Origin: Candidatus Dormiibacterota bacterium
GTDB taxonomy: Bacteria > Chloroflexota > Dormibacteria > Dormibacterales > Dormibacteraceae
Length of the DNA: 43,508 nt
Assembly (NCBI GenBank): GCA_035280145.1
Contig: DATEGL010000170.1
Location: 1 to 43,508, forward strand
Direction of reading: 5' to 3'
Positions 739-25,529 of this stretch are shown piece after piece (position 1 is the stretch's first letter; each line of letters starts with the position of its first letter). The notes beneath the pieces were generated by a model. It was not told the origin of the DNA and did no database searches. It worked only from the letters and a program-made list of their open reading frames with translations. The position numbers and the translations under genes were made by a program.

Positions 739-3516
739 ATGCCACTGCCCCAGCCCCGCCACCTGGCTTTTGTATTCGCGATTGCACTGGTCGCCAACTC
801 CGCGGCAGGCCTGGCGTCCTCGCACGGCATCACGCCGGTTCATGCCGCGGCAGTCAGGCAGGCCGGAGATCGAAGTCATCCGCTCGTAACTCAACTCGAA
901 TCGGATCGAGTCGCGGCCGGCCTGCCACCCCTGGTGACGCCAGGCCCGACCAAACCCAGTGCTCAAGCCTCGACCCAGGGGACTTCGATCTACGTGGGCA
1001 AGCCACAGCGCGAGGTCATGGGTTTCGCATTGGCGAGCAGTCTCAGTGATCCGACTCTTGGCTATCCCAGTTGGAACTTCGAGCTGATATCCACGCTTTC
1101 CTTCTTCGCGCTGCACGTCGACTGGACTGGCCACATCGTGCAGACCGACAACGCGTGGAGCGTGTGGAACTCCTCCGCGCTGACCAATTTCGTCAACTTC
1201 GCCCACTCCAACGGCGTGAAAGTGCTAGTCACGGTTGACATGCACGACTTCGGCTCCGGCACGCCCAACATGTGCTCGGCGCTGCAGAGATCGAGCATCA
1301 CCATCAGCGAAACCGCGGCGCAGGTCTCCGCGAAGGGCGTGGACGGCGTCAACATCGACTACGAAGGCCAGAACAACAGCTGCGGCACCAGCGACCCACT
1401 CTGGGTTCGCCATGCAATGACGGCCTTCACTCACGACATGCGCGTCGCGATCGGAAGCTCGAGGTATCTGTACATCGACACCTACTCGGGCGCGGTCGGC
1501 GATCCGGAGGACTTCTTCGACATCCCGAGCCTCAACCCCTACGTCGACGTCTTTTTCGTGATGACGTACGACATGGAGTACTCCAACTGGGCGTATCCGC
1601 CGGTCAGCTGTCCGACCTTCTGCCTCGGCCCGACCTCTCCGCTGACCGCCTACTACTACAACGACACGAACGTGATGGCGAACTATGCCGCGGCGGTGGG
1701 CGCGTCGAAGGTCGAGCTTGGCATCCCGTATTACGGCCGGAAAGCCTGCGTTCCGCAGGCAGTCGCCAACGCCGACCCGTCATCGTCGGTGATTGCCGAC
1801 ATGTACGTCGACGCCGCCGGCGAGGCTACCGACCCCTCAGTCGTGCCCGGCTCGTACGTCGCCCACCGCGAATACCGCTCGAGCGGACTCGAGCGCTGGG
1901 ACACGTGGAACAACAGCACCCTCAACTGCATTCGCGAGCTCTACTGGGACGACACTCTTTCGCTCGGCAAGAAGTACGACCTGGCCAACGCGGACGGCTT
2001 GCGCGGCATCGGGATCTGGACCCTCAACTACGGGGGCAGCTCAACCGAGCTCTGGAACACGATCTACAGCCACTTCGTCGGCTGCAGCAGCAGCGGGATC
2101 GGGGCGTCGCCGCAAGCCCCGCTGGCGAGGGGCTCCGCGGTGAACATCTCGGCTGCGGCTTATGGCTGCGCCAACCCCGAGTATCGGTACTGGGTGCTGC
2201 CGCCGGGCGGGACGTGGACCATGGTCCAGGACTACACAAGCGCCACCAGCTACGCGTGGAACACTGCCGGCGTGGCCCCGGGCGCATATCGATTCGCCGT
2301 CTGGGCCAGAAACGTAGGCTCGCCGAACGCGTACGACGTCTACAGCACGATGAGCTACTCGGTCACCGCGCCATGCACAGGACTGACTATCGCTCAGGCG
2401 CCGCCTTCGCCACAGATCAGCAGCACAACAGTCACGCTCAGCGCTGCCGGCTCCGGCTGCCCGAACCCGAATTATCGCTTCTGGATCCTGCCGCCCAATG
2501 GAGTGTGGACGATGGTCCAGGACTACACCACGACCGCGACATACGCCTGGAACACCACAGGCATCAGGGCCGGCGTTTATGGCATCTCGGTCTGGGCGAA
2601 GGACCCCAGCACCGGGGGAAGCTTCGACCTCTACCGGACCGCGAACTTCGCGATCACCTCGCCTTGCTCCTCCGCCTCTATATCCAGCTCGCCGCCGGCG
2701 CCTCAGCAAGCGGGAACGTTCGTCACACTGAGCGGCGCGACGGGCGCGTGTCCCAACCCGCAGTTTCGCTTCTACGTCCTGCCGCCTGGAGGGTCGTGGA
2801 CCCTGATCCAGGACTACTCGGCGGTCAACGCGTATAGCTGGGACACCTCGACGGTGGCGGCGGGGACGTACAGATTCTCGGTCTGGGCACGAGATGCCGC
2901 ATCCACTGCGTCTTATGACGCGTACGGGACGACCTACTATCTGGTCACCCGGCGCTGCACAAGCCTGGCCCTGGCCACTCGATCGAACATCACGTCCGTC
3001 GCGGTCGATGCCAGCGCGTCCGGCTGTCCAACACCACGGTTCCGTTTCTGGCTGCTGGCGCCTGGCGCCGGTTGGACGATGGTGCAGGACTACAGCTCGA
3101 GCACGTCGTATGTATGGAACACGGCCCACCTCGCCGCCGGCAGCTACCGCTTCTCGGTCTGGGCGCAGGATGCGACGTCGCCCGGCTCCTACGACACTTA
3201 CACGACCCTCACCTATTCGTTCGCGCCCTGCACGTCCGACAGCGTCTCAGCCACGCCCGCATCGCCACAGTCAGTGGGCTCGTCGGTGACCATCAGCTCC
3301 ACGGCGGCCGGCTGTCCCAGCCCGCGGTACCGCTTCTGGATCCTGGCCCCAGGCGGCACGTGGACGATGGTGCAGGACTACGGCGGGGGCAGCTCGTACG
3401 CGTGGAACACCACCGGTCTGGCTCCAGGCACCTACACGTTTTCGGTCTGGGCCCTGGACGCCAGCTCGGGAAGCGGTTACGACACCTACCGCACATATAC
3501 GTTCGTGCTCAAGTAG
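739..3516 (+). CDS. Secreted glycoside hydrolase family 18 (YaaH/YdhD-like) enzyme fused to five triple-tyrosine repeats
   Basis: Signal-like N-terminus LAFVFAIALVANSAAGLA. GH18 active-site region AKGVDGVNIDYEGQ (DxxNxDxE, with the D-x-E retained). Five tandem ~95-aa repeats run from nt 2083 to the stop. Confidence 0.85.
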   Translation: MPLPQPRHLAFVFAIALVANSAAGLASSHGITPVHAAAVRQAGDRSHPLVTQLESDRVAAGLPPLVTPGPTKPSAQASTQGTSIYVGKPQREVMGFALASSLSDPTLGYPSWNFELISTLSFFALHVDWTGHIVQTDNAWSVWNSSALTNFVNFAHSNGVKVLVTVDMHDFGSGTPNMCSALQRSSITISETAAQVSAKGVDGVNIDYEGQNNSCGTSDPLWVRHAMTAFTHDMRVAIGSSRYLYIDTYSGAVGDPEDFFDIPSLNPYVDVFFVMTYDMEYSNWAYPPVSCPTFCLGPTSPLTAYYYNDTNVMANYAAAVGASKVELGIPYYGRKACVPQAVANADPSSSVIADMYVDAAGEATDPSVVPGSYVAHREYRSSGLERWDTWNNSTLNCIRELYWDDTLSLGKKYDLANADGLRGIGIWTLNYGGSSTELWNTIYSHFVGCSSSGIGASPQAPLARGSAVNISAAAYGCANPEYRYWVLPPGGTWTMVQDYTSATSYAWNTAGVAPGAYRFAVWARNVGSPNAYDVYSTMSYSVTAPCTGLTIAQAPPSPQISSTTVTLSAAGSGCPNPNYRFWILPPNGVWTMVQDYTTTATYAWNTTGIRAGVYGISVWAKDPSTGGSFDLYRTANFAITSPCSSASISSSPPAPQQAGTFVTLSGATGACPNPQFRFYVLPPGGSWTLIQDYSAVNAYSWDTSTVAAGTYRFSVWARDAASTASYDAYGTTYYLVTRRCTSLALATRSNITSVAVDASASGCPTPRFRFWLLAPGAGWTMVQDYSSSTSYVWNTAHLAAGSYRFSVWAQDATSPGSYDTYTTLTYSFAPCTSDSVSATPASPQSVGSSVTISSTAAGCPSPRYRFWILAPGGTWTMVQDYGGGSSYAWNTTGLAPGTYTFSVWALDASSGSGYDTYRTYTFVLK
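2083..3513 (+). repeat. Five tandem coding repeats (~286 nt / ~95 aa each) of the two-Cys triple-tyrosine domain
   Basis: Repeated GC-x-N/T/S-P-x-[YF]-R-[FY]-[WY]-[VIL]-L-[PA]-P-x-G-x-W-T-[ML]-[VI]-Q-D-Y ... Y-x-W-[ND]-T ... G-x-Y-x-[FI]-[SA]-V-W-A-x-[DN] ... [YF]-D-x-Y blocks, each bounded by a Cys. Confidence 0.85.
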
Positions 3517-3540: not shown

Positions 3541-5349
3541 TTGACTGACTTCAGGCCCACGCGCGGGCCGGCGATTCTTTACGCGCTCCTCATCCTGGCG
3601 GTCGGGCTCGCGTACAGGCTGTCGTTCGTCTACCAGGGATGGTCGGCCACCGACGAGGGCTGGCTCCAGGCGGCCGGGATTCGCATCGCGTCGGGCCAGG
3701 TGCCGTACCGAGACTTCGAATATCCGCTACCGCCGGTCACGATCTACAAGGAGGCAGCGCTGGCGGCCGTCACCGGGCCAGGCTGGACGGTGCTCGCGTC
3801 GAGGTGGCTTTTCTCGTTCGAGGTCACGCTTGCCTCGCTGCTGGCGTTTTTGATCCTGCGTCGCGCAGTCAGCGACCGAACCGCATTCTTCGTAACGCTG
3901 CCGACTGTCTTCTTCACCGTGATGATCCTGGCGTTTACGAATTACACATACGATGCGGAGTTCTGGGCCCTCGTCTCGGTGACATTGGCCGTGTACGCGG
4001 GAGAAGGCAGGCGGCAGGGGTTGGTGGCGCTTGCCGCGGGCGGAGCGGCTGGCCTGGCCGCCATGGCCAAGAGCCCGTTTCTCGCGTTTCTACCGGCGAT
4101 CCCATTCGCCGCCCTCGCCGGCTCATGGCTGAGGCGGGGTCGCAATGACGCGCCGCAAATGGCTCGTTCCTTGCAGCGAGTGTGGCTGCTCTACCTGGCC
4201 GGCGCCGCGATCGTCATCGGCGGGTTCTTCGCCTACTTCGCCTCAATCGGACTGCTGCGGAGCTTCGTCGAGCAAGCGTTTCTCCTGACCGCTCGCGCCA
4301 ACCCGGTGAGCCTGCGCTTTGCGTTGATCCAGGACCTGCCGGACTACGCGGTCCGCTTCGGCCGTTTGGGGATTGGCGTCACTGCGATCATCTTGCTTCT
4401 CCTCCCGTTTGCGATCAACCGTTTGTGGGAGTTTGTCCGCACCGTTCTTCTGCTGGGAGCTCTGGCCTATGTGCTCGTCTACACGCAGCTCCACCCGCCA
4501 ATCCCCTCGCGCCCGTACTTCATCAACATCGCGTACTTCGTGGTGTCGGGAGTTGGGGTGATCGCCCTGCTCGTAAGCCTGATCCTGGAAACGCCATGGC
4601 TCGCCCGCAATGAGACCGCCGCCGGGCTGAGATCACGATTCCCGCCTCTGGAGCTGATCTTCCTGGCCCTTTTCCTGCAGTGGCTGGCTCAGTTTCATTA
4701 CGACGGCCTGGTGTTCTGGTTCGTCGGATCCTATCTGAGCGTGCCCGTTGTCCTCATCTTTCTACGCGAGCTGGGCCGCGTCCGCATCCCAGTCTTCCGA
4801 GGCGCCACGCGTCTGCGCTTCGGCGCCCCGGCCGTAGCCTGGGTGCTCATCGCGACATGGCTGTCGATTGGCGGTGCCGGCATCTTTCTCGAGCGCGTGT
4901 ATCAGGACGCCGACCGGCCTCTGCTCACTGCCTCGTTCTCGCCTGCGAAATTGAGCGGCATCACGACTTACCCCGAGACCGCACAGCGAGTCGATGCTCT
5001 CGTCGCCGAGGTTGACCGGCGGACCAAGCCCGGCGACCCCATATTCTTCTTTCCTGATTACGGGATCATGTACGCGGTCACGGGACGCACCAATCCCACG
5101 CCGCTTGACTGGTACAACGAAGCGTTTCTCACTCCGGCGGTCACGGACCAGGTGCTGGCGGCGCTGCAGCGTGATCCTCCCAGGGTTGTTTTCCTCCAAC
5201 GGCAGCGCGAAGGCGCCTACCAGCGCGACCAGCCTCCCGTCGATTACGTGCACAGCAAATGGGCCCCAATCTTTCTGTACCTGATCGCGCACTACCGGGT
5301 GGACGGAGGTGTCCAGGACATCGCCATCCTGGTTCCCGCCGGGCCATAG
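3541..5349 (+). CDS. Polytopic GT-C fold glycosyltransferase (GT39 / ArnT / Pmt-like)
   Basis: 602 aa with many hydrophobic segments. The first extracytoplasmic loop has an acidic motif, SATDEGWLQAAG...VPYRDFEYPLPP, typical of PMT_2/ArnT-type enzymes. TTG start 22 nt after the GH18 stop. Confidence 0.65.
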   Translation: MTDFRPTRGPAILYALLILAVGLAYRLSFVYQGWSATDEGWLQAAGIRIASGQVPYRDFEYPLPPVTIYKEAALAAVTGPGWTVLASRWLFSFEVTLASLLAFLILRRAVSDRTAFFVTLPTVFFTVMILAFTNYTYDAEFWALVSVTLAVYAGEGRRQGLVALAAGGAAGLAAMAKSPFLAFLPAIPFAALAGSWLRRGRNDAPQMARSLQRVWLLYLAGAAIVIGGFFAYFASIGLLRSFVEQAFLLTARANPVSLRFALIQDLPDYAVRFGRLGIGVTAIILLLLPFAINRLWEFVRTVLLLGALAYVLVYTQLHPPIPSRPYFINIAYFVVSGVGVIALLVSLILETPWLARNETAAGLRSRFPPLELIFLALFLQWLAQFHYDGLVFWFVGSYLSVPVVLIFLRELGRVRIPVFRGATRLRFGAPAVAWVLIATWLSIGGAGIFLERVYQDADRPLLTASFSPAKLSGITTYPETAQRVDALVAEVDRRTKPGDPIFFFPDYGIMYAVTGRTNPTPLDWYNEAFLTPAVTDQVLAALQRDPPRVVFLQRQREGAYQRDQPPVDYVHSKWAPIFLYLIAHYRVDGGVQDIAILVPAGP

Positions 5350-5425
5350 AGCTGAGGTGGGCCGAGTCAGGTGGCGAGCGCGTCGCCGAGGCCGCGACAG
5401 GAGATTGGAGGTGGAGGAGAGGCCC

Positions 5426-6019
5426 CTAGCGCGAGCCGACTGCCAGCACGTAGCGGTGATGGATCGCGAATTCCTCCCAGTGCTCGATCTCAAACTCGGC
5501 CGCCATCGCTGAGCGTATGACCTCCGCCGGCCGCGCGTATGAGCCGCGGTCGTAACGCCACAGCACGCGGCTGCGCAGGCGGTCGGGGTCCAGGATCGCA
5601 TCGAGGAACACGAGGCGCCCGCCATGCCGGAGCAGGCGAGCGCTTTCGCTAAACAGCAGCGGAAGAGCGCGGTCGTCGATATGGTGCGACACCGCCTTGC
5701 ACACCACGAGGTCGATGCTGTGGCTGAGGAGTGGAACGCGGGTGGCATCCCCGATGAGCGGTGTGCCGCTTGAATGCTTGGCCCGAAAGCCCTTCAGCTT
5801 GAGGGGGTCGTTGTCCAGGCAAATATATGCGGCGCCTACCGGCCACAGCTCCGGGGCGAGGCCGGTCCCGCCGCCAATGTCCACCAGGCGCTCCACTGGC
5901 GGGAGCTCGGCGAGCCGCCGGGCGACCCGGCGATTCACCTCGGCTACTCCGGCCACCGCCTGCAGCGCGTCATAGACACGCGGCCGCGCCGCCACCCTGT
6001 GCAGGACATCAGTCAGCAT
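5426..6019 (-). CDS. Class I SAM-dependent methyltransferase
   Basis: Motif I LVDIGGGTG; Methyltransf_11/25-like layout. The start overlaps the upstream gene by 11 nt. Confidence 0.75.
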   Translation of the reverse strand: MLTDVLHRVAARPRVYDALQAVAGVAEVNRRVARRLAELPPVERLVDIGGGTGLAPELWPVGAAYICLDNDPLKLKGFRAKHSSGTPLIGDATRVPLLSHSIDLVVCKAVSHHIDDRALPLLFSESARLLRHGGRLVFLDAILDPDRLRSRVLWRYDRGSYARPAEVIRSAMAAEFEIEHWEEFAIHHRYVLAVGSR

Positions 6020-6827
6020 CGCGACCTGATCTTCGAGCCACTGCGATTAGCGAGGAGCCGATCGGTAGCTTTCGCCGGCGGCGCAGGAGCGGGCGTTCCA
6101 GCGCCAGCAACGGACGAAAAGCGGCGCCCAGCAGCGGGTTGAGGTTCAGCTCCTGGTCGACCAGGCGCTTCCGCCGATCGGGCTCGGAAAGATTCGCAGA
6201 ACCGCTCCTGCGCGGGGCGAGGCGGCGGCCCGCCCACAACGCCGGATAGAGACCCGCCATGTACGGGCTCAGAAATTCGATCTCAAATCCAGCCTGCGCC
6301 AGCTTGCCGGCCAGCTCGTCCGACGTATAGCGGCGAACGTGCTGCGCCGCCTCGTCGAAGTAGCTCCACAGCCTGGGCCCGGCGGGTACGGTGACCACCA
6401 GCGCGCCACCGTCGGTGATCATCTGCCGCAGGGCGTGCAGGACGCCCACGTCGTCCGGCAGGTGCTCGAGTACGTCAAACATGCCGACTATCTCGAACCG
6501 AACGGAGAATGGAGGATGCATTGCGTCAGCGCGCACCAGCGCTGCGTTGGGCAGGCGCCTGCGCGCGACCTCGAGGCCGTCCTGAAACAGGTCGATGCCC
6601 ATCACCGAGCCGGTCGGGCACGCCGCCGCCAGCGTCCGCAGGACGTTGCCCGTTCCGCAGCCGACCTCCAGCACGCGATAACCGGGCGCGAGCGTCGCCG
6701 TCAGCTGGCCCACAGTCGCTGCGATAACGCGATTTCGCGCCCGGAACCAGAAGTGATGGTCCTCCACTGCGGCCAGAGGTTCGAAGTAGCTCGGGTCGTA
6801 CTCGGTCCGGACAGTCCCGGACATCAC
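6009..6827 (-). CDS. Class I SAM-dependent methyltransferase (HFWF N-terminal motif family)
   Basis: EDHHFWFRARN near the N-terminus, then VLEVGCGTGN (motif I) and DVLEHLPDD. Confidence 0.8.
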   Translation of the reverse strand: MMSGTVRTEYDPSYFEPLAAVEDHHFWFRARNRVIAATVGQLTATLAPGYRVLEVGCGTGNVLRTLAAACPTGSVMGIDLFQDGLEVARRRLPNAALVRADAMHPPFSVRFEIVGMFDVLEHLPDDVGVLHALRQMITDGGALVVTVPAGPRLWSYFDEAAQHVRRYTSDELAGKLAQAGFEIEFLSPYMAGLYPALWAGRRLAPRRSGSANLSEPDRRKRLVDQELNLNPLLGAAFRPLLALERPLLRRRRKLPIGSSLIAVARRSGRDAD

Positions 6828-6834
6828 ATGTTCC

Positions 6835-7977
6835 TTATACGGGAGTGAAGTCTCGGACGGCCTCGATCACGCGACGCTGCTCGGATGCCGTCAGCTGGTT
6901 ATAGAACGGAAGCCTCACCAGCCGGTCACTGATGTCTTCTGTCACCGGGCAGCCACCTTCGCGGCCTCCGAAACGCCGTCCCATCTCCGAGAGGTGGAGG
7001 GGCACGTAATGAAACACAGCCATGATGTCGCGCTCCTTGAGGTGAGCGATGAACCGCTGCCGGGTGTCGAGCGATGGCATGAGCAGGTAGAACATGTGGT
7101 ACGACTGCTCGCGATCCGACGGAATGACCGGGAGGCGCACCCCATTTGACTGCGCCCAGTCGGCCAGGCCGGCGCAGTAGGTTTCGTAGATCCGCCGGCG
7201 CGCCGACTGGATGCGATCCCGGGCTTCGAGCTGCGCGAGGAGCACCCCGGCCAGCATGTCGGAGGGCAGATAGCTCGATCCGATGTCGGTCCAGGTGTAC
7301 TTGTCCACCTGGCCGCGGAAGAAGCGGCTGCGGTTGGTACCCTTCTCGCGAATCATCTCTGCTCTTTCGATGTACTTCGGGTCGTTGATGAGGAGCGCCC
7401 CGCCCTCACCGCAGCTGAAGTTCTTGGTCTCGTGGAAGCTCTGCGCCGCGAGGGCGCCGAACGTCCCGAGCAGCCGGCCTTTGTACCGGCCGAAGAGTGC
7501 GTGGGCGTTGTCCTCGATGACGACGACGCCTCTCCGCCGGGCGATCTCCATGATTGCGTCCATCTCGCATCCGACGCCGGCGTAGTGGACGAGGACCGCG
7601 GCGCGCGTGCGATCAGTGATGAGGCTTTCGAACTGTCGCTCGTCGAAGTTCAATGTGTCCGGCCGAACGTCGATGAAAACCGGCTTTGCGCCCCGGAGCA
7701 CAAATGCGTTGGCGCAGGACACGAAGGTGAACGACGGAATGATCACCTCGTCGCCCGGCTTTAGATCGAGCAGCATCGCTGTCATCTCCAGCGCGTGGGT
7801 GCACGAGGTCGTCAGCAGAGCTTTCGCAACGCCAAGCTCAGCCTCGAGGTACTCGTGGCAGCGTTTGCTGAACATGCCGTCGCCGGAGACGTGACCCGCA
7901 GCGATCGCCTCGGCGATGTATTCGTGCTCGTTGCCCTCGAAGCTGGGACGGTTGAAAGGAATCAAGCCTTCCATCAA
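6835..7977 (-). CDS. wecE: dTDP-4-amino-4,6-dideoxyhexose (WecE/RffA-type) PLP-dependent sugar aminotransferase
   Basis: Long colinear similarity to remembered E. coli WecE blocks: IPFNRP, SCTHALEMTAMLLDLKPGDEVIIPSFTFVSCANAFVLRGAKPVFIDVRPDTLN, FHETKNFSCGEGGALLIND, REKGTNRSRFFRGQVDKYTW, MAVFHYVPLH. The real start may be the ATG at 7974. Confidence 0.85.
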   Translation of the reverse strand: MMEGLIPFNRPSFEGNEHEYIAEAIAAGHVSGDGMFSKRCHEYLEAELGVAKALLTTSCTHALEMTAMLLDLKPGDEVIIPSFTFVSCANAFVLRGAKPVFIDVRPDTLNFDERQFESLITDRTRAAVLVHYAGVGCEMDAIMEIARRRGVVVIEDNAHALFGRYKGRLLGTFGALAAQSFHETKNFSCGEGGALLINDPKYIERAEMIREKGTNRSRFFRGQVDKYTWTDIGSSYLPSDMLAGVLLAQLEARDRIQSARRRIYETYCAGLADWAQSNGVRLPVIPSDREQSYHMFYLLMPSLDTRQRFIAHLKERDIMAVFHYVPLHLSEMGRRFGGREGGCPVTEDISDRLVRLPFYNQLTASEQRRVIEAVRDFTPV

Positions 7978-8744
7978 GGCCTGGTTCCGATCGCGTAGAG
8001 GTTCTTGAATTCCCGGTTAGGCCCGGCGCTCGGATCAAGCTGGACAGGCTCGGAGTACGCCGCCATTCCGTCATGCACTGCTCCGAGCTCCGGCAGCTTT
8101 CCGTACAGCACCCGCTTGACCAGAGCCTTGGCGCGCATCGACCGCGGGATGAGGTGAAAGCGCACCGCAAAGTGCCGGAGCGGGGCAAGTGCGCGGTCGC
8201 GGGGAGTGGTTTCCTCCGCCGGGAAGGCGCCGTAGACACGCACGTCAAAGCCACATCCGTCCAGCAGGGAATCTATCTCGCTCGTGTTGAAGTACCGCGT
8301 GCTGAGAGGGCTCGGGTTGAAGTCGGGCCGGTCGCGGTTCGGCAGGCACACCATCAGACTTCCGCCCGGCTTGAGCACTCTGCGGCACTCCGCGATCGCA
8401 GCCTCATGGTCAGGAAGGTAGTAGATCATCTCGAGCATCAGCACTGCGTCGAAGGTGGCGTCGAGGAAGGGGAGGCGCTGTGCGTCCATGCAGACCAGGT
8501 TCGCCTGGGGAATGTGCCGGCGCCCCTCACGCAGCAGCCTTAGCGTGTAGTCGCCTCCGACCGACATGCGGGAGTGGTTCTGCAGGTAGGGCAGTCCCAT
8601 GCCGCTCCCACATCCGACCTCAAGAACAGCGCCTCCGTGACCCACCTCGGCCGCGAGCCGGTAGCGAAAGTACTGCATCGCCAACTGCTCCGGCGAAGCG
8701 GGCAGGCCCCAGGTCTCCGTGACGGCTGTGTAGTCGCTCGTCAC
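7974..8744 (-). CDS. Class I SAM-dependent methyltransferase
   Basis: VLEVGCGSGMG motif I and LKPGGSLMV. GTGA start/stop overlap with the upstream gene. Confidence 0.75.
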   Translation of the reverse strand: MTSDYTAVTETWGLPASPEQLAMQYFRYRLAAEVGHGGAVLEVGCGSGMGLPYLQNHSRMSVGGDYTLRLLREGRRHIPQANLVCMDAQRLPFLDATFDAVLMLEMIYYLPDHEAAIAECRRVLKPGGSLMVCLPNRDRPDFNPSPLSTRYFNTSEIDSLLDGCGFDVRVYGAFPAEETTPRDRALAPLRHFAVRFHLIPRSMRAKALVKRVLYGKLPELGAVHDGMAAYSEPVQLDPSAGPNREFKNLYAIGTRP

Positions 8745-9349
8745 TTGTGCAGTGGAAGGAGCGCCGTCTTGACCAGGATGTCGAGGTCGTCGCGGAAGGT
8801 TGCCTTCCGCACATAGTCGATGCCGAGTCGCATCTTCTCGGGCCGGATCAGCTCTGCGTAAGCCCGATCGGGATCGGAGTGCCCGGCCAGGATCTCGCCC
8901 TCGTTGTGAAATCTGAGCGATGACCAGTCTGTAATCCCGGGCCGCATGTTCAGGATCTCGCGTTCCTCTTCGGTGTAGCCCGCGACCTCTTCCGGCACCT
9001 GCGGGCGAGGACCGACGAAGCTCATATCTCCCTTCAGAACGTTCACAAGCTGGGGCAGCTCATCGAGCTTGTAGCGGCGGAGGAACCGACCTGTTCCGGT
9101 CAGGCGAGGGTCGTCGTCCGGTGTGTTGGGCCCGCCCACCCGGTCCGCGTTGGTGACCATGGTGCGGAACTTGAACATGCGGAACTCGCGACCGCCCCTG
9201 CCGACCCGCCGGCCGGCGTAGATCGCCGGGCCGTCGCGATCGAGCTTGATCCGCGCCCAGATCGCGAGGACGATCGGCGAAGTGAGCACCAGGCCGGCCG
9301 AGGCGAGCGCGACGTCGAAGACGCGCTTGGCGACGAGGGATCGACTCAG
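8741..9349 (-). CDS. Small PglC/WbaP-C-terminal-type polyprenyl-phosphate sugar-1-phosphate transferase (initiating enzyme)
   Basis: AKRVFDVALASAGLVLTSPIVLAIWARIKLDRDGPAIY...REFRMFKFRTM...DELPQL.NVLKGDMSFVGPRP is the bacterial sugar transferase signature. The N-terminal 193 aa of the 395-aa track ORF are R/G/P-rich out-of-frame sequence over the neighbouring gene. The start is uncertain: CTG at 9349, or GTG at 9439. Confidence 0.8.
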   Translation of the reverse strand: MSRSLVAKRVFDVALASAGLVLTSPIVLAIWARIKLDRDGPAIYAGRRVGRGGREFRMFKFRTMVTNADRVGGPNTPDDDPRLTGTGRFLRRYKLDELPQLVNVLKGDMSFVGPRPQVPEEVAGYTEEEREILNMRPGITDWSSLRFHNEGEILAGHSDPDRAYAELIRPEKMRLGIDYVRKATFRDDLDILVKTALLPLHK

Positions 9350-10449
9350 GAGTAGAAGTCCTTGATGCCGGCGGCCACCTCGAGCACCTGGTCCTCGCCC
9401 AGCTCGTTGTTGAGGGGAAGCGAGAGCACCCGCGCGCACAGGTCCTCTGTCTTGGGCAGGTGAATGTGGGCGAGCCCCACCGGCTGCTTGTGGTTGGGTA
9501 CCGGACCGGGTGAAATCAGGGTCTCGATTCCCTTCGCGGCGAGATGCGCCGCGAGCTCGTCGCGGCAGTCGGCCTCGATGACATAGTTCTGATAGATGTC
9601 GAAGTAGGGTCCGCCGTCGGGGCCTGGGGGCCGCTTGATCGTGCCCACGTCCGCCAGCTCCTCGTCGTAGATGGCGGCCAGCCTGCGCCGCTGGTTGATC
9701 CACTCCGGGACTTTCTTCAGCTTGAGGTCCAGGATCGCGGCCTGGAGGTTGTCGAGCCGGCAGTTCCAACCCCAGCCGGAGAATCCGGTCTTGGAGATGC
9801 GCCCGTGATCGCGCAGCTCGCGCAACCGAGCGGCCAGCGCGGCGTCGCTGGTCACGACTGCGCCGGCGTCTCCGTACGCACCGAGCAGCTTTGCCGGATA
9901 GAAGCTGAACGCGCCGGCGAGGCCCCACGCCCCGCCCCGCGCTCCCAGGTAAGCGCCGCCGAGGGCCTGGGCGGCGTCCTCGATCACGAGCAGATCGTTT
10001 CGGCGCGCGATCTCCATGAGACGCTCCATCTGGACCAGGCGGCCGTTGAGATGCACAGGCATCATTGCCTTGGTGCGCGGCGTGATCGCCGCTTCGACCA
10101 GGTCGACGTTCATCACATGGTCCTCGCCGACGTCGACCAGGACCGGCGTCGCTCCCACCTGGTGGATGACGGCCATCGTCGCCATGAACGTGTGCGAGAC
10201 GGTGATCACCTCGTCGCCCGGTCCGATGCCGACCGCCTCGAGCAGGAGCCGCATGCCATCGGTGCAGTTGCTCACGCCAACCGCGTCTGTCGTGCCGACG
10301 AATGCCGCCAGGTTGTGCTCGAAATCAAGCATCTGCTGGCGCATGATCAAGTCGCCTTTCGTAAGTACGTCGCGCATCGTCGCCATGACCTCGTTCTCGA
10401 TGCGCAGAAATTCCTTGCCCGGCTCCCAGAACCTAACCGACACGGCCAT
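9346..10449 (-). CDS. DegT/DnrJ/EryC1/StrS-family PLP-dependent nucleotide-sugar aminotransferase
   Basis: 367 aa with family blocks VSNCTDGMRLLLEAVGIGPGDEVITVSHTFMAT, LLVIEDAAQALG and AFSFYPAKLLGAYGDAGAVVT. Confidence 0.85.
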   Translation of the reverse strand: MAVSVRFWEPGKEFLRIENEVMATMRDVLTKGDLIMRQQMLDFEHNLAAFVGTTDAVGVSNCTDGMRLLLEAVGIGPGDEVITVSHTFMATMAVIHQVGATPVLVDVGEDHVMNVDLVEAAITPRTKAMMPVHLNGRLVQMERLMEIARRNDLLVIEDAAQALGGAYLGARGGAWGLAGAFSFYPAKLLGAYGDAGAVVTSDAALAARLRELRDHGRISKTGFSGWGWNCRLDNLQAAILDLKLKKVPEWINQRRRLAAIYDEELADVGTIKRPPGPDGGPYFDIYQNYVIEADCRDELAAHLAAKGIETLISPGPVPNHKQPVGLAHIHLPKTEDLCARVLSLPLNNELGEDQVLEVAAGIKDFYS

Positions 10450-11374
10450 AGCTCCTCGTGATGACCTGCTGGATGGTTTTCAAGACGGAATCCTCGTCGA
10501 GACCGTGCATTGCTTTCAGGTAATTCTGATCCCCGACAGTTTTGTTGAACTCGGGCCGCAACCCGATCCTCTTGAGCGTCGCGTGTCCAGGTTCCAGTTC
10601 TGCCATCACCTCGGCGACCGCGCCGCCCAGCCCGCCCTCGACGCTGTGCTCTTCGAGGGTGAAAACGTAGCGCGTCTCAGCTGCGGCGCACGCCACGGCG
10701 TCGCGGTCGAGCGGCTTGATGGTGTGCATGCTCAACAGGCGCACGGCCAAGCCCTGGTCGCTCAGCCTGCGTGCCACCCTGTCGGCGGTCGCGAGCATCC
10801 CGCCCGACGCGATCAATGCCACATCCGATCCGTCGCGCACCGTGATCGCGCGGCCAAGAACGAAAGCCGGCTCGGCCTGATGCACCACCGGCTCGCCCGC
10901 CTTTCCCAGACGGAGGTAGAAAGGACCGTCCTGCGCCACGGCGGCACGTGTGGCGAGGCCTGCCTCGACCGGGTCGCCAGGCGACACGACGGTCATGTTT
11001 GGAAGAGCGCGCATGATCGCCACGTCCTCCGACGCGTGGTGGGTCACGCCGAGGTTGCCGTAAGCCAGACCTCCACCCACCGCGACGACCTTGACGTTGG
11101 CGCGGTGGTAGCAGACGTCGTTGCGAATCTGCTCGATGCAGCGCAGGGTCGCGAAGTTGCCGATGGAGTAGGTGAAGACGATCTTGCCCGTCAACGCCAT
11201 ACCGACGGCGAGGCCGATCATGTTCTGCTCCGACACGCCGGCGTTGACGAACTGATCAGGGTGCCTGGTGGCAAATTCTTCGATCACGGAGTAGCCAAGG
11301 TCGCCGACCACAAGGCACACGCGCTCGTCGCGGTCGGCCAGCTCGTTGAGGGCCTGGATGAATGCGGTCCTCAA
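10433..11374 (-). CDS. Transketolase-family protein, C-terminal (pyrimidine-binding) subunit
   Basis: DLGYS...FVNAGVSEQNMIGLAVGMALTGKIVFTYSIGNF... plus a C-terminal TK_C-like region. TTGA overlap with the N-terminal subunit gene. Confidence 0.8.
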   Translation of the reverse strand: MRTAFIQALNELADRDERVCLVVGDLGYSVIEEFATRHPDQFVNAGVSEQNMIGLAVGMALTGKIVFTYSIGNFATLRCIEQIRNDVCYHRANVKVVAVGGGLAYGNLGVTHHASEDVAIMRALPNMTVVSPGDPVEAGLATRAAVAQDGPFYLRLGKAGEPVVHQAEPAFVLGRAITVRDGSDVALIASGGMLATADRVARRLSDQGLAVRLLSMHTIKPLDRDAVACAAAETRYVFTLEEHSVEGGLGGAVAEVMAELEPGHATLKRIGLRPEFNKTVGDQNYLKAMHGLDEDSVLKTIQQVITRSYGRVG

Positions 11375-12204
11375 GAAGCCTCCACTTCAGCCAGCGCGGT
11401 GACCAGTTCGTCGGGCGACGGCGGCCGATAGTGCCACAGCACTTTGCCTTCCATCCAGCTCACGCCTTTGCCCTTGATCGTGTGGGCGATGATGGCGTTC
11501 GGCTTGCCGGTCTCCAGCGGCAGAGCGTCAAACGCCTCGCGAAGCACGTGCACGTCGTGTCCGTCAACCTCCCGGACAGCCCAACCAAACGCTCGGAACT
11601 TGTCCGCCAGTGGCTCGAGCCTGAGCGTCTTTTCGACGAAGTCGAGGCTCTGGATCTTGTTGTAGTCCAGCACGACGTTCAGGTTGTCGAGCCTGTGATG
11701 GCCGGCGAACAGGATTGCCTCCCAGTTGGAGCCTTCGTCACACTCGCCGTCGCTCATGACCACGAACACGCGCCACCCGGCTCCGCTGCGTTTGCCGGTC
11801 AGCGCCATGCCGGTGCCGACAGGCAGGCCGTGGCCGAGCGAACCGCTCGACATCTCGACCCCCGGCACGCCCCAGTGGGTCGCGTGGCCGTACAGCTGAC
11901 CGCCGTTGCGCGCGTACCCGCCCAGGTCTTCGACCGGAATGAAGCCTGCTTCTGCCATCGAGGCGTACAGGATCGCGGCGGCGTGGCCCTTTGACATGAT
12001 GAGCCGGTCGCGGTCGGGCCACTGGGGTCGTTTGGGATCGATGCGCAGCTCGGATCCGTAGAGCACGGCGAGGATATCGGCCACCGAAAGGCAGGAGCCG
12101 ATGTGCGACGTCCTGGCGGCGCTGATCATGCGCAGCGAGTGGCTGCGCAGCCGGCGCGCGAGCGCACGGAGGTCGTCGTCAGAGACATGCCGGTTGTCGG
12201 TCAC
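11371..12204 (-). CDS. Transketolase-family protein, N-terminal (ThDP-binding) subunit
   Basis: SHIGSCLSVADILAVLY, DRLIMSKGHAA, SGSLGHGLPVGTGMAL and VVMSDGECDEGSNWEA (ThDP/metal motif GDG-x-EG-x-N). Confidence 0.8.
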   Translation of the reverse strand: MTDNRHVSDDDLRALARRLRSHSLRMISAARTSHIGSCLSVADILAVLYGSELRIDPKRPQWPDRDRLIMSKGHAAAILYASMAEAGFIPVEDLGGYARNGGQLYGHATHWGVPGVEMSSGSLGHGLPVGTGMALTGKRSGAGWRVFVVMSDGECDEGSNWEAILFAGHHRLDNLNVVLDYNKIQSLDFVEKTLRLEPLADKFRAFGWAVREVDGHDVHVLREAFDALPLETGKPNAIIAHTIKGKGVSWMEGKVLWHYRPPSPDELVTALAEVEAS

Positions 12205-12959
12205 GGAATCCTCGCAAACGCGATGTAGGGGTCGAAGTCGACACGCTGCAGCTCCAGCTTGCCGATGCCGAGCGTGTCGAGCAGGGCGAGCGTCTCCCCC
12301 GGCCAGATTGGATTGTCGAGCTCATCGAAGGCCAGAATCGCTCCCTTGGGCATTCTCGGCACGAAAGCCTGCAAGGCAGACTTTGTGGGCTCGTAAAGGT
12401 CGAAGTCCAGGAACAGAAGGCTGACCACCAGGTGGGGATGCTCAGCCATGAAGCGGGGAATCGTCTCCAGCGCATCGCCTTTGATCAGCTCGACCTTTGG
12501 GATGTGGCCGAGGAAGCGATCCTTGTCGTACAGGCTGATGAGCTCCAGCAGCTCGGCGTACGAATCGGCGTGCAGACCTCCCGGCTCGGCCGTCTGCCAG
12601 CCCGGGCCGGTCTGGTCCTTCTCGCTCACGGCAGGAAAACCAGCGAAGCTGTCGAAGCCGTAGATCCGCCGCGTCAGGTTTACCGGCTCGAGAACAGCGC
12701 TGAGCTTGGCCCATGCCATCAGGCCGTAGCCGCGGTTCACCCCGCACTCCACGATCGAGCCCTTGACTTCGATGATCCGTTTGAAAATCTCGTACATCGC
12801 GAGCAAACGGGTGAGGTGCTGGCGGCGCACGTACTTCGGAAAGTTTTCGATCCGGACCTCGACCGGGTCGGGGCTGGCGTTGAAGATCTTCGCGATCTCC
12901 GGCCCGACCATCCGCTCCTGGTCGGTGCGCAGCGGCTTGGACTCCGTATTACGGGCCAT
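12201..12959 (-). CDS. TylF/macrocin-O-methyltransferase-family SAM-dependent sugar O-methyltransferase
   Basis: IVECGVNRGYG, FDSFAGFP, LLFLDFDLYEPT and AFDELDNPIWPGE match the TylF (Methyltransf_24) pattern. Confidence 0.75.
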   Translation of the reverse strand: MARNTESKPLRTDQERMVGPEIAKIFNASPDPVEVRIENFPKYVRRQHLTRLLAMYEIFKRIIEVKGSIVECGVNRGYGLMAWAKLSAVLEPVNLTRRIYGFDSFAGFPAVSEKDQTGPGWQTAEPGGLHADSYAELLELISLYDKDRFLGHIPKVELIKGDALETIPRFMAEHPHLVVSLLFLDFDLYEPTKSALQAFVPRMPKGAILAFDELDNPIWPGETLALLDTLGIGKLELQRVDFDPYIAFARIP

Positions 12960-14847
12960 CGGTCACCGGGCGGCCCTCTCGCGTGCGTGCGATGCGGGGC
13001 TCTTGTCGGGCGTGGGGTGGATGGTCGCCGGCGGCTGTCTTGAGAGTCCGGACCAGGTCATCGGTGCGACCTTCGCGCGCAAGCTCCTCGAGCCGGTTGA
13101 CCGTCCAGTCGAGGTCCTCTGGGCTGAAGCTCTGAGGCGAGACCACCTCCATGATCGCCGGGTGATCGGTCGGGCGCGAGCCTTCGTCCGGGCCAAGCAG
13201 CTCCTCGTGCAGCCGCTCGCCTGGGCGAAGTCCGGTGTAAACGATCTCGATATCGGGACCCGGACGCAGGCCTCGCGCGCGTACCAGGGCCTCGGCCAGG
13301 CTGACGATCTTCATCGGCTCCCCCATGTCGAGCATGTATACGTGGCCGGGCTTGGCGACGGTCAGCGTCTTGATCACGAGTGACACCGCCTCGCGGATTG
13401 TCATCATGTAGCGAGTCATCTCGGGGTGGGTGATCGTGACGGGGCCACCCTGCTCGATCTGCCGCTCGAACAGCGGGACCACGCTGCCCCGGCTGCCGAC
13501 GACGTTGCCGAACCGCACGGCCCAGCACGTCATCTCACCGCGCCACCCGAGGATCATCTGCTCGCACAGTCGCTTCGTGCATCCCATCACCGAGTGACGG
13601 GCCACGGCCTTGTCGGTCGAGACGAGGATGAAGCTCTTCACGCCGCCGGCTTCGGCGCACCGCAGTGTGTTGTAGGTGCCGATCACGTTGGTGACGACTG
13701 CCTGGGCGGGGTGCATCTCCATCATCGGCACGTGCTTGTAAGCGGCGGCGTGGAACACGACTTCAGGCCGCTCCTCGGCAAAGACCCGCAGCAGCTGCTC
13801 ACGGTCGGTGATCGAGATCAGCGCTTCGCGGACGTCGATCGAGCTGCCCATGCGCAGCTCCTCGGTGATGTCGAAGAGCCCGCTCTCGTTGTTGTCGAGC
13901 GCTACGAGCCGTCGGGGCTCCAGGCGCGCGAGCAGACGGCACAGCTCCGAGCCGATCGAGCCTGCGGCGCCGGTGACCAGCACGGTCTTGCCCGCAACCC
14001 GATCCCTCGCCTGCTCGATCTCAAGCTCGCGATGCGTCCGGCCCACCAGGTCATCGGCGGAAAGCTGGCGGAGTCTGGTGCCGTGCTGGCGGTGCATCCA
14101 GTGGTCGGCCGCGGGAACGATGAACAGAGGCAGGCCCGCCTGCAGGCAGGCGTCGAACATTTTCTTGTCGGCAGGCTGGGAATCACCGCTCAGGACGAAT
14201 GCAACTCCGTCGGCCTCGACCGACTTGAGGAGATGCGGCAGGTCGTCCGAGTGGCCGACGATTGGCACCCCGAGCACCGTGTGATTGAGCTGGCGCTGGT
14301 CGGTGGTCACGATGGCCACCGCCTGCCAATCCGCGCTTGGAGACTGGACAAGCTCCTTTACCGCAGGGTGCGAGGCGGAGCTGGCCACGATGAGCAGCCG
14401 GCTGCCCGTTGCGGGAGCGCGGGATAGCAAACGCGGCAGCAGGCGAAAGATCCCGATTCCCATCAGCGCTGCCGGTGCTGCCAGCAGCGGCACACCGATG
14501 CGGAACGCACGGTCGTCGCCGGGCAGGGCCCAGTTGGCCAGAAAGATGAGCAGAGCGGCCTCAGCGACCGCGAACGCGGTGGCGATCGCGTCATGTATGC
14601 CGGCGACTTTCCAGATCCGGCGGTACAGCTTGAAGTGTGCTTCGGCCGCGCCGAGGGCCAAAACGACGAACGCAACGGAGAGAACGAGGATCCTGCGCGA
14701 CTGGGCGGTGGTGATGATCCGGCCGCCGTAATTCAACTGCTGGAACGCCTCGAGTGCGACCCAGAAGATCACGACTTCGATCACGAAACCAGGCCCGTAG
14801 CGTTGCAAGTTGCGGACCTGGTGAACGAGCCAGGGGGCGACCGTCAC
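12949..14847 (-). CDS. Membrane-anchored CapD/PglF/WbpM-type nucleotide-sugar 4,6-dehydratase
   Basis: 632 aa. N-terminal TM segments, then the Rossmann motif KTVLVTGAAGSIGSELCRLL, AAYKHVPMME (YxxxK) and FILVSTDKAV. Confidence 0.85.
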   Translation of the reverse strand: MTVAPWLVHQVRNLQRYGPGFVIEVVIFWVALEAFQQLNYGGRIITTAQSRRILVLSVAFVVLALGAAEAHFKLYRRIWKVAGIHDAIATAFAVAEAALLIFLANWALPGDDRAFRIGVPLLAAPAALMGIGIFRLLPRLLSRAPATGSRLLIVASSASHPAVKELVQSPSADWQAVAIVTTDQRQLNHTVLGVPIVGHSDDLPHLLKSVEADGVAFVLSGDSQPADKKMFDACLQAGLPLFIVPAADHWMHRQHGTRLRQLSADDLVGRTHRELEIEQARDRVAGKTVLVTGAAGSIGSELCRLLARLEPRRLVALDNNESGLFDITEELRMGSSIDVREALISITDREQLLRVFAEERPEVVFHAAAYKHVPMMEMHPAQAVVTNVIGTYNTLRCAEAGGVKSFILVSTDKAVARHSVMGCTKRLCEQMILGWRGEMTCWAVRFGNVVGSRGSVVPLFERQIEQGGPVTITHPEMTRYMMTIREAVSLVIKTLTVAKPGHVYMLDMGEPMKIVSLAEALVRARGLRPGPDIEIVYTGLRPGERLHEELLGPDEGSRPTDHPAIMEVVSPQSFSPEDLDWTVNRLEELAREGRTDDLVRTLKTAAGDHPPHARQEPRIARTREGRPVTDGP

Positions 14848-18685: not shown

Positions 18686-19687
18686 TCAGCTCAGGTAGAA
18701 GAACCAATGAGCGTCATACGCGTCATAGCCGGCTGAGCTGCTTGCGTCGCGCACCCAGACCGAGAGCCGGTAATGTCCGGTGGTCTGGCCGCTTGACGTT
18801 GACCAGTTATAGGTGGAGCTGGTCGAATACGGTTGGGCCAGGGTCCACACTCCACCATTGGCGGGCCCGAGGATCCAGAATTCGAACAGCGGGTTCAGAC
18901 AGTCTGGGCTGGACGCGCTGATGGTCACAACCGTCCCGCCGGGCGCGCCGCCAGGCGGTTGGACAGATTCGCTCACCGACGGGCAGCCTGGGGTCAAGTC
19001 GAAATATTCGCTTGCGTCGTATGAGTCGTACGCCGCACTGCTTGTCGTGTCTCGCAGCCAGACCGAGAATCGATATGTCCCTGTCGTTTGCGTGCTCGAG
19101 GTCGCCCAGGAGTAGTAGCTGACCGAGCTGTAGTCCTGCACCATCGTCCAGGCGCCGCCGCTCGCCGGGCCGAGAATCCAGAACCGGTACAGAGGGTGGG
19201 AGCAGACCGCGGGAAGCTGAGCGTTGATTGTGACCGTGGTCCCGTGCATCGATCCAGTGGATGGCGCGGACGAAAGTGAAACTGCGGTGCACTGCGTCAG
19301 CGTGTATAGCAGGGTGTGGTAGGAGTCGTAGCTCAGCGTGCTGGCGCTGTCCCTCGCCCACACCGAGAACTCGTAGGTTCCCGCCGCAAGCGAGGCGGTC
19401 GGCCAGGAGTACGAAGAGCTGGTCGAGTACGTCTGAACCACGGACCATGTGCCACCGGGTGGCAGGAGCCAGAACTGATACAGCGGATTCGGGTTCGGGC
19501 AGCCGGACGCAACGGCCCAGACGGTTACCACAGGGCCGACCGTCGTCGGTGAGGGCGGGATGGCGTTGATCGTGGTCGCGGTGCAGCCGCTGCCTGCTCC
19601 GGCTGTCAGGACGGCAGTGTGATGTGAACCGGGAACGAAGGCGAGACCGAGACACCCGAGCGCAGCCGCGGCCAGGCGAGCCCTCAA
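18686..19687 (-). CDS. Secreted head-less protein made of a signal peptide plus three triple-tyrosine repeats
   Basis: MRARLAAAALGCLGLAFVPG signal-like start, then three ~100-aa repeats (coding repeats at about 18689-19585). Ends exactly at the last repeat. Confidence 0.8.
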   Translation of the reverse strand: MRARLAAAALGCLGLAFVPGSHHTAVLTAGAGSGCTATTINAIPPSPTTVGPVVTVWAVASGCPNPNPLYQFWLLPPGGTWSVVQTYSTSSSYSWPTASLAAGTYEFSVWARDSASTLSYDSYHTLLYTLTQCTAVSLSSAPSTGSMHGTTVTINAQLPAVCSHPLYRFWILGPASGGAWTMVQDYSSVSYYSWATSSTQTTGTYRFSVWLRDTTSSAAYDSYDASEYFDLTPGCPSVSESVQPPGGAPGGTVVTISASSPDCLNPLFEFWILGPANGGVWTLAQPYSTSSTYNWSTSSGQTTGHYRLSVWVRDASSSAGYDAYDAHWFFYLS

Positions 19688-25423: not shown

Positions 25424-25529
25424 AAACAACCTTGTTAACGAAACGCCCAAGAGAACCCTGTATTAATACCCCGGACCGAGAGTCGCAGATTCTAAGAGCC
25501 AAAACTTAGAGCCGGTTAAACTCGCGAAA

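Follow-up and report, generated by a model that had tools for sequence, protein, structure and literature searches.

A split transketolase-like pair of surface-glycan loci that may act on nucleotide-activated keto-sugars

What does a transketolase (TK) split over two genes do in the middle of a surface-glycan operon? The question arises from contig DATEGL010000170.1 (C170) of a Candidatus Dormiibacterota metagenome-assembled genome (MAG; GCA_035280145.1; 2.4 Mb, 76% complete, about 65% G+C), analysed here over its whole 43,508 nt (the window). A minus-strand cell-surface glycan cluster spans about 4.7–25.4 kb of the window, and inside it two adjacent genes, which we call TKN and TKC, encode the subunits of a TK-like enzyme dependent on thiamine diphosphate (ThDP). 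An earlier note on this DNA had argued from their placement against a housekeeping role and had suggested ketol transfer onto the product of a neighbouring dehydratase. The first of these arguments is now supported by a separate TK gene, by clade membership, by a nucleotide-sugar context shared across phyla and by remodelled acceptor-side residues. We find that the pair is very probably a dedicated enzyme of nucleotide-sugar or glycan tailoring, not a metabolic TK, and that, judged by its sequence, it belongs to a large, horizontally spread clade in surface-glycan loci.

Separation from housekeeping transketolase

The two gene models agree with the earlier description of a split pair at 10433–12204. 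All three transketolase-superfamily domains score above their gathering thresholds (PF00456 on TKN, PF02779 and PF02780 on TKC), and the TKN stop overlaps the TTG start of TKC as TTGA (11371–11374). The flanking junctions also stand as first read: the stop codon of a TylF-family methyltransferase gene overlaps the TKN start as GTGA (12201–12204), and the ATG of a DegT-family aminotransferase gene, DegT1, at 10449 overlaps TKC, whose TAG lies at 10433–10435, by 17 nt. The TTG start of TKC appears credible because most listed relatives align from residue 1 and Arg2, the equivalent of Escherichia coli TK Arg358, is conserved (120 of 133 representatives). The closest solved relatives are the N chain 6YAK (261 bits) for TKN and 6YAJ (208 bits) for TKC, both from the split TK of Carboxydothermus hydrogenoformans, which has the same two-chain architecture and forms a heterotetramer; the next-best solved relatives of TKC after transketolases are 1-deoxy-D-xylulose 5-phosphate (DXP) synthases.

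Whether the genome holds a separate full-length TK, a point raised in the earlier note, is answered by a canonical 630-residue enzyme on contig C133 that scores 943.7 bits with the equivalog model NF004559 (cut-off 488), whereas TKN and TKC score 275.5 and 195.5 bits, both below that cut-off. Full-length TKs are also present in all five other carrier genomes tested (Sphingomonas, Paramagnetospirillum, Mesorhizobium, Actinotalea and Bythopirellula). Because a close ortholog of the pair (83–88% identity) occurs in only 3 of the 24 other same-genus genomes searched, the pair is an accessory trait; several same-genus genomes that are at least 94% complete contain no close ortholog. On the strength of the separate canonical TK, here and in five carriers, and of the patchy distribution within the genus, we rejected a housekeeping role for the pair.

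Relatives were sought by tblastn in the GTDB species genomes, which returned at least 588, the closest of them in Dormibacterota/Chloroflexota MAGs. The best 80 loci, which represent more than 12 phyla (Saccharibacteria, Omnitrophota and, with two MAGs, archaea among them), were fetched with about 8 kb on each side. Residues were mapped through HMMER alignments to human TK and the solved Carboxydothermus split TK, and are given in E. coli numbering; the established human/E. coli equivalences are R318/R358, S345/S385, E366/E411, H416/H461, D424/D469, Q428/H473 and R474/R520. Across a family alignment of 77 sequences (76 fetched loci and the window), His26, His66, His100, Asp155, Asn185, His261, Glu411 and His473 are invariant and Arg358 is retained in 76. 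The window's TKN keeps the equivalents of His26, His66, His100, Asp155, Asn185 and His261, and its TKC those of Arg358, Ser385, Glu411 and His473; the cofactor chemistry and the ketol-donor side of the enzyme appear to be intact.

Other positions are altered throughout the family. The ThDP/metal motif GDG reads SDG in 75 of the 77 sequences, GSLGQG reads GSLGHG in 76, and a Tyr directly follows His261 in 76 (WHY). The His461 site is Gly in 76, the Asp469 site is never Asp and is Leu in 65, and at the Arg520 site 52 sequences have Lys and 23 have Arg. The window pair carries every signature residue of the clade (SDG, GSLGHG, WHY, Gly at 461 and a non-acidic residue at 469), with Leu at 469 and Lys at 520, and does not match the canonical set of Arg358, Ser385, His461, Asp469 and Arg520. 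The housekeeping TK of the MAG has the canonical residue at every substrate-binding position, and the Carboxydothermus split TK, which is used as a general ketol-transfer biocatalyst, differs from the pair in keeping GDG, His461, Asp469 and Arg520 in the same alignments. Gly at the His461 site extends to 121 of the 133 near-full-length representatives (50%-identity clusters) that lie closest to TKC in a library of 1.84 billion proteins. The Asp469 site covaries with gene context, being Leu in 58 of 61 pairs of the UDP/PGT type and His, Gln, Leu, Ala or Met in pairs of the CDP type (both described below), and a D469L change in E. coli TK has been associated with acceptance of aromatic acceptors (PMC13663882). 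The acceptor pocket is predicted to be larger and less polar than in canonical TK, and Arg358 together with Lys/Arg520 may hold a donor phosphate or the diphosphate of a sugar nucleotide.

A maximum-likelihood tree of concatenated TKN and TKC (81 rows, LG+G4, quick search, rooted on the MAG's own housekeeping TK) places all pairs from glycan contexts, the window included, in one clade (SH-aLRT 100). The earlier note had proposed a comparison with metabolic split TKs, and in this tree the pair is set apart both from the housekeeping TK and from a catabolic split TK of Actinotalea (L092; neighbours: an FGGY kinase, an ABC permease and a SorC regulator), which lies outside the clade with its relative L090. 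L092 is the sole clearly catabolic comparator; L091 neighbours MoeA and a beta-lactamase-fold protein, and L093 is a divergent pair on a very long branch beside a DegT-like gene. Within the glycan clade, pairs of the CDP type are mostly basal, and the taxonomy is scrambled, which points to horizontal transfer. On the tree built from TKC alone (146 rows), 4 changes suffice for the Gly461 state, compared with a shuffled mean of 15.4. Gene context agrees with this in three spot checks. Two basal representatives that keep His461 stand in non-glycan contexts, P0247 next to an ABC sugar-uptake system and an Aminotran_3 gene, and P0201 in a LysW/LysX carrier-protein cluster resembling a natural-product pathway. 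P0268, the weakest of 150 representatives (39% identity), has Gly461 and sits in a glycan locus whose genes encode short-chain dehydrogenases/reductases (SDRs), an NTP-transferase, a flippase, GT2s and a methyltransferase.

Two side observations concern other split TKs. Actinotalea lenta (G004) carries two full-length TKs and three different split pairs (L091, L092 and L086) in one genome, one of the pairs in a sugar-catabolic operon and one in the CDP-type glycan clade. On a JGI metagenome contig (L096, 5102–6999), a His461-keeping split TK adjoins a DegT gene. The LysW/LysX amino-group-carrier-protein cluster around them also has BtrH_N, phosphodiesterase-family and APS-kinase genes and has the look of an unrelated natural-product route into which a split TK has likewise been recruited.

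Conserved neighbours of the pair across phyla

Neighbouring genes were compared in a census of 81 loci (the 80 fetched loci and the window) by tblastn with the window proteins, all-against-all clustering of the neighbouring open reading frames (ORFs) and Pfam/NCBIfam scans of cluster representatives. A DegT aminotransferase lies near the pair in 60 of the 81 loci, and a small (about 220 residues) Bac_transf phosphoglycosyl transferase (PGT) in 55, on the same strand in 54 of its 57 copies. A methyltransferase like CalS11 occurs within about 8 kb in 36 loci (homologues 46–92% identical; about 60–68% outside the Dormibacterota/Chloroflexota group), a PglF-type dehydratase in 34 and a Methyltransf_11 enzyme in 24, spread over several phyla (homologues 34–41% identical). 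The gene order varies among loci, either methyltransferase-TKN-TKC-DegT or methyltransferase-DegT-TKN-TKC, which suggests that the linkage is functional rather than historical. Pentose-phosphate genes were never seen among the neighbour clusters of the 81 loci.

Besides the type with uridine diphosphate (UDP) sugars and PglF, two further contexts recur. Eight loci have an aldo-keto reductase beside PGT-TKN-TKC, six of them with no DegT gene in the fetched stretch. About 11 have the pair after a glucose-1-phosphate cytidylyltransferase (TIGR02623, 467.9 bits; cut-off 300) and an SDR like CDP-glucose 4,6-dehydratase (CDP, cytidine diphosphate), and in 0 of these 11 is the small PGT linked. Common to the three types are only a nucleoside diphosphate (NDP)-hexose 4,6-dehydratase and the TK pair. 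Among the recurring partners, only the 4,6-dehydratase forms a carbonyl, and it is the candidate source of the acceptor. DegT-partnered and reductase-partnered pairs are intermixed in the tree, which is in keeping with a product carbonyl open to either amination or reduction, and the tight link to the small PGT suggests a finished UDP-sugar that is loaded first onto the lipid carrier.

The partner enzymes of the window fit this setting. The TylF-family methyltransferase has as its closest solved relative CalS11, a TDP-rhamnose 3'-O-methyltransferase (186.9 bits, E = 5e-54) that acts at the nucleotide-sugar stage. The adjacent dehydratase of the earlier note is present as a PglF/CapD-type protein whose best NCBIfam match, below cut-off, is a PseB-type UDP-GlcNAc 4,6-dehydratase. 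DegT1 resembles C3-type or atypical aminotransferases and reaches no NCBIfam equivalog cut-off (best PseC, 188 bits against 423). Its closest solved relatives are the C3-aminotransferases 2OGA (DesV), WbpE and QdtB; NtdA and a Kdo8N transaminase are also among its matches, and aminotransferases of the PglE, PseC or WecE type, which act at C4, are absent from its top matches to solved structures. Because a second aminotransferase of the cluster, the true WecE-type 4-aminotransferase DegT2, would already take the plain 4-keto sugar, DegT1 plausibly has a different ketone as its substrate; the presence of DegT2 fits action of DegT1 on the new branch ketone. DegT2 itself likely serves a second sugar and lies outside the conserved cassette; among close relatives, a gene of its type stands beside the cassette only in L012.

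The same arrangement is found in a cultured organism. The wps-2 locus of Actinoplanes missouriensis, a Wzx/Wzy-type polysaccharide cluster, has a methyltransferase, the two TK halves and a DegT in the same order (AMIS_56700–56730), and its genes carry domain predictions only, with no function proposed for the TK halves (PMC13390465). L012 (DASPXA010000025.1, labelled Verrucomicrobiia) carries the whole PglF-methyltransferase-TKN-TKC-DegT-PGT-Methyltransf_11 block; the encoded proteins are 82–89% identical to those of Dormibacterota/Chloroflexota, and the tree places it among these, reflecting either recent transfer or a mis-binned contig. The archaeal carriers are a Woesearchaeota MAG (L085), with a CalS11-like methyltransferase gene between TKN and TKC, and a Heimdallarchaeota MAG (L076) with DegT-TKN-TKC-PGT. 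A class I/II aminotransferase (PF00155, 218.9 bits) directly follows the cassette DegT in L033, L038, L043, L045, L046, L052 and L053 (for example L045:6828–7991, plus strand); its cluster spans eight loci, the L017 copy not adjoining a DegT, and its nearest NCBIfam models, below cut-off, are generic or methionine aminotransferases. That this enzyme might form the ketol donor hydroxypyruvate from serine is pure speculation.

The gene cluster in the window

On the minus strand the core reads, 5' to 3', PglF/CapD dehydratase, TylF-family methyltransferase, TKN, TKC, DegT1, small PGT, Methyltransf_11 and DegT2, followed by more methyltransferases (Table 1). A maximal ORF of 395 residues (8741–9928) was rejected as the PGT gene model; its first 190 or so codons overlap DegT1.

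Table 1. Genes of the glycan-tailoring core in the window
Gene or product	Position	Strand	Length	Start, best match or remark
TKN, ThDP/metal-binding subunit of the split TK-like enzyme	11371–12204	-	277 aa	GTG start; PF00456 Transketolase_N, 142.9 bits, 1.5e-41
TKC, pyrimidine-binding and C-terminal subunit	10433–11374	-	313 aa	TTG start; PF02779 Transket_pyr, 1.9e-35; PF02780 Transketolase_C, 2.2e-22
CalS11/TylF-like nucleotide-sugar O-methyltransferase dependent on S-adenosylmethionine (SAM)	12201–12959	-	252 aa	PF05711; upstream neighbour of TKN
DegT1, DegT/DnrJ/EryC1-family aminotransferase dependent on pyridoxal phosphate	9346–10449	-	367 aa	PF01041, 317 bits, 1.9e-94; downstream neighbour of TKC
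PglF/CapD-type membrane-anchored UDP-N-acetylhexosamine (UDP-HexNAc) 4,6-dehydratase	12949–14847	-	632 aa	PF02719, 339.7 bits, 1.7e-101
Small PglC-like initiating PGT	8741–9439	-		Start uncertain (GTG at 9439 or farther downstream); PF02397 Bac_transf, 184.6 bits, residues 201–390 of the maximal ORF
Second cassette methyltransferase, Methyltransf_11 type	7974–8744	-	256 aa	PF08241
DegT2, WecE-type sugar 4-aminotransferase	6835–7977	-	380 aa	NF008687, 566.2 bits (cut-off 375)

Around DegT2, the minus strand of 5426–8744 holds up to three further SAM-methyltransferase ORFs (5426–6019, 6009–6827 and 7974–8744), with overlapping models at 4762–6019; these ORFs suggest a second sugar in the same glycan, an N- or O-methylated 4-amino-4,6-dideoxy sugar. 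Flanking or inside the glycan cluster, four large proteins (739–3516, plus strand; 18686–19687, 19692–22196 and 23375–25450, minus strand) bear Y_Y_Y domains, mostly C-terminal, and comprise a GH18 chitinase-like, a PQQ/beta-propeller, an Amidase_2 plus FN3 and one shorter protein; the domain could be a shared cell-surface or glycan-anchoring module. The remainder of the window holds genes of branched-chain and aromatic amino-acid metabolism. The window encodes a second ThDP enzyme, unrelated to the pair, at 40616–43009 (plus strand): a single chain of 797 residues in which the alpha domain (E1_dh) of a 2-oxoacid dehydrogenase E1 is fused to the beta domains (Transket_pyr and Transketolase_C). 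This chain gives the weak ninth Transket_pyr match. The window DNA is matched in two rhizosphere metagenome runs of one study, possibly that of the source sample, and no RNA run is among the matches.

A proposed ketol branch on a keto-sugar and its alternatives

Transketolase chemistry needs a carbonyl acceptor and gives a new alpha-hydroxy ketone. Taken with the recurring dehydratase and with an aminotransferase or reductase as the next enzyme, this makes ketol branching at C4 the simplest pathway, and the nearby 4,6-dehydratases of the UDP-HexNAc or CDP-glucose type lend contextual support to the predicted C–C bond formation on an NDP-4-keto-6-deoxyhexose. The PglF-like dehydratase would convert UDP-HexNAc to UDP-2-acetamido-2,6-dideoxy-hexos-4-ulose. 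TKN and TKC would then draw on a ketose phosphate or hydroxypyruvate as ketol donor to make dihydroxyethyl-ThDP, and add this to the C4 carbonyl, leaving a 4-C-hydroxyacetyl branch on a tertiary alcohol. The side-chain ketone would be transaminated by DegT1 or, in other loci, reduced by the aldo-keto reductase; the product would be methylated by the CalS11-like enzyme, perhaps also by the second methyltransferase, and the small PglC-like PGT would start the repeat unit by loading the finished UDP-sugar on the lipid carrier. We give about even odds to the core of this path, in which an NDP-4-keto-6-deoxy sugar receives the ketol unit at C4 and its branch ketone is afterwards aminated or reduced, with acceptor, donor, step order and product all predicted.

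More broadly, we tentatively propose, with a probability of roughly 0.4, that the clade is the first type of TK with a nucleotide-activated keto-sugar as its natural acceptor, and that it makes a new class of O-methylated 6-deoxy-hexosamines, branched with a 4-C-(1-amino-2-hydroxyethyl) or 4-C-(1,2-dihydroxyethyl) group, with which, linked to the lipid, surface glycans begin in bacteria and some archaea from more than 12 phyla.

Such a reaction has well-defined relatives. ThDP-dependent C-branching of sugars is itself already known, and what would be new here is its TK-type variant. The earlier note had named YerE-like and pyruvate-dehydrogenase-E1-like enzymes as the known ThDP-dependent sugar branchers, in agreement with a review in which transketolases are only proposed (PMC12247030). 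YerE, which with the reductase YerF builds CDP-yersiniose A for the Yersinia pseudotuberculosis O-antigen, is likewise a ThDP enzyme of a surface-glycan locus; it attaches two carbons at the C4 carbonyl of an NDP-4-keto-6-deoxy sugar, and the branch ketone is then processed, as we propose here. About 11 of the 80 loci of the pair share its CDP-glucose pathway context. YerE differs in that it is of the decarboxylase/acetolactate-synthase-like ThDP superfamily, takes pyruvate as its donor and has proven activity, whereas the pair has a two-subunit TK fold and a predicted activity; also, YerE/YerF products have the branch ketone reduced, whereas that of the pair would mostly be aminated by DegT. 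A Pfam scan found no TPP_enzyme_N, TPP_enzyme_M or TPP_enzyme_C domain on TKN or TKC, and the likeness to YerE is one of proposed role and context only.

Split TKs have been proposed, without proof, to install the hydroxyacetyl branches of miharamycin and amipurimycin, and the 13 split TKs that the review cites as predicted sugar branchers all come from Streptomyces (PMC12247030). From their description, these are two-gene TKs beside sugar-tailoring genes with a proposed hydroxyacetyl transfer onto a keto sugar, as in the pair; they differ in belonging to Streptomyces antibiotic clusters, whereas the pair lies in surface-glycan loci of more than 12 phyla with a link to an initiating PGT. According to the same review, no ketone-accepting TK has been characterised (PMC12247030). 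Rif15a/Rif15b of rifamycin biosynthesis has been shown biochemically to be a two-subunit TK that needs ThDP and Mg2+, takes its two-carbon unit from fructose-6-phosphate and attacks a ketone (PMC6002545). It resembles the pair in its two overlapping genes, its ThDP dependence, its 2-ketose phosphate donor and its non-phosphorylated secondary-metabolite acceptor. Our literature search found no characterised TK that acts on nucleotide 4-keto sugars or comes from O-antigen or capsule clusters, only the Actinoplanes annotation, the review and the natural-product cases.

Several points weigh against ketol branching of a nucleotide sugar. To our knowledge, no member of the clade has been characterised biochemically and no carrier organism has a known glycan structure; nor do we know of a TK shown to use a sugar ketone acceptor with a stable C–C product. 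About half of the loci have no dehydratase within the roughly 8 kb fetched per side, and the alternation of DegT and reductase would also be expected if both acted directly on the 4-keto sugar. A phosphorylated substrate of the ordinary kind would likewise account for the retained Arg358 and Lys/Arg520. Because the catabolic split TK L092 also lacks His461 and Asp469 (Ser and Leu there), loss of the two residues is not diagnostic alone; SDG, WHY and Gly461 together are. The trees include few metabolic split TK comparators, and the exact boundary of the clade is provisional. With Rif15a/Rif15b, finally, a naphthoquinone serves as acceptor, rearrangement turns the adduct into a C–O ester and the pathway is not one of sugar nucleotides.

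Three alternatives were weighed, the strongest of which changes only the donor. The pair, within the same glycan-tailoring clade, might work like DXP synthase or YerE, decarboxylating pyruvate and passing hydroxyethyl-ThDP to the NDP-4-keto sugar, so that amination or reduction follows on a 4-C-acetyl branch. The pyruvate-using YerE has the CDP-type context, DXP synthases come next among the solved relatives of TKC, a weak DXP_synthase_N match on TKN (PF13292, 7.2e-06) is common in the relatives' precomputed Pfam annotation, and several wild-type split TKs take pyruvate as a donor (PMC13663882). We nevertheless regard this as unlikely: the NF004559 scores of TKN and TKC exceed their dxs scores of 32 and 142.6 bits, and the equivalents of the TK-typical His26, His261 and His473 are invariant, a state still compatible with a pyruvate donor.

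Slightly less likely again is that the nucleotide sugar is left untouched, and that the pair and DegT1 make a small amino-polyol or amino-ketose (phosphate) from ordinary metabolites, which then becomes a glycan substituent. The laboratory transketolase–transaminase cascade provides a model for this, some DegT-family enzymes (NtdA, Kdo8N transaminase) use non-nucleotide substrates, the conserved basic residues at 358 and 520 would suit a small phosphorylated substrate, and the class I/II aminotransferase accompanies DegT in eight loci. However, no ligase, kinase or phosphotransferase able to attach such a substituent recurs in the cassette (neighbour clusters, 81 loci), the tightest partners (4,6-dehydratases, CalS11-like methyltransferase and PGT) make or use NDP-sugars, and the Asp469 site covaries with the nucleotide-sugar type. 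An ordinary metabolic TK isozyme that raises the supply of sugar-phosphate precursors for the polysaccharide is very improbable, even with all catalytic and cofactor residues intact and TK equivalogs as the best family models, given the canonical TK in this genome and in all five other carriers, halves that score below the equivalog cut-off, the replacement throughout the clade of His461 and Asp469 (sugar-phosphate binding and acceptor selectivity), the patchy occurrence within the genus and a context free of pentose-phosphate genes. QncN/QncL reportedly supply a glycolyl or acyl group in quinocarcin biosynthesis; an equivalent role of the pair, as the source of such a group for N-acylation, was rejected for the window, as none of the genes recurring with the cassette is of the E2-like, lipoyl, carrier-protein or ligase kind.

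Should the proposed ketol transfer to the keto-sugar prove true, a third enzyme superfamily would join the proven catalysts of sugar C-branching. The pair would then be a natural ketone-accepting TK that forms functionalised tertiary alcohols for biocatalysis, an open goal according to the review cited above (PMC12247030), and several hundred genes would no longer be annotated as metabolic 'transketolase'. For the carriers themselves, it would predict that the surface polysaccharides of many cultured and uncultured soil and water bacteria carry branched amino sugars of a new family at their reducing end.

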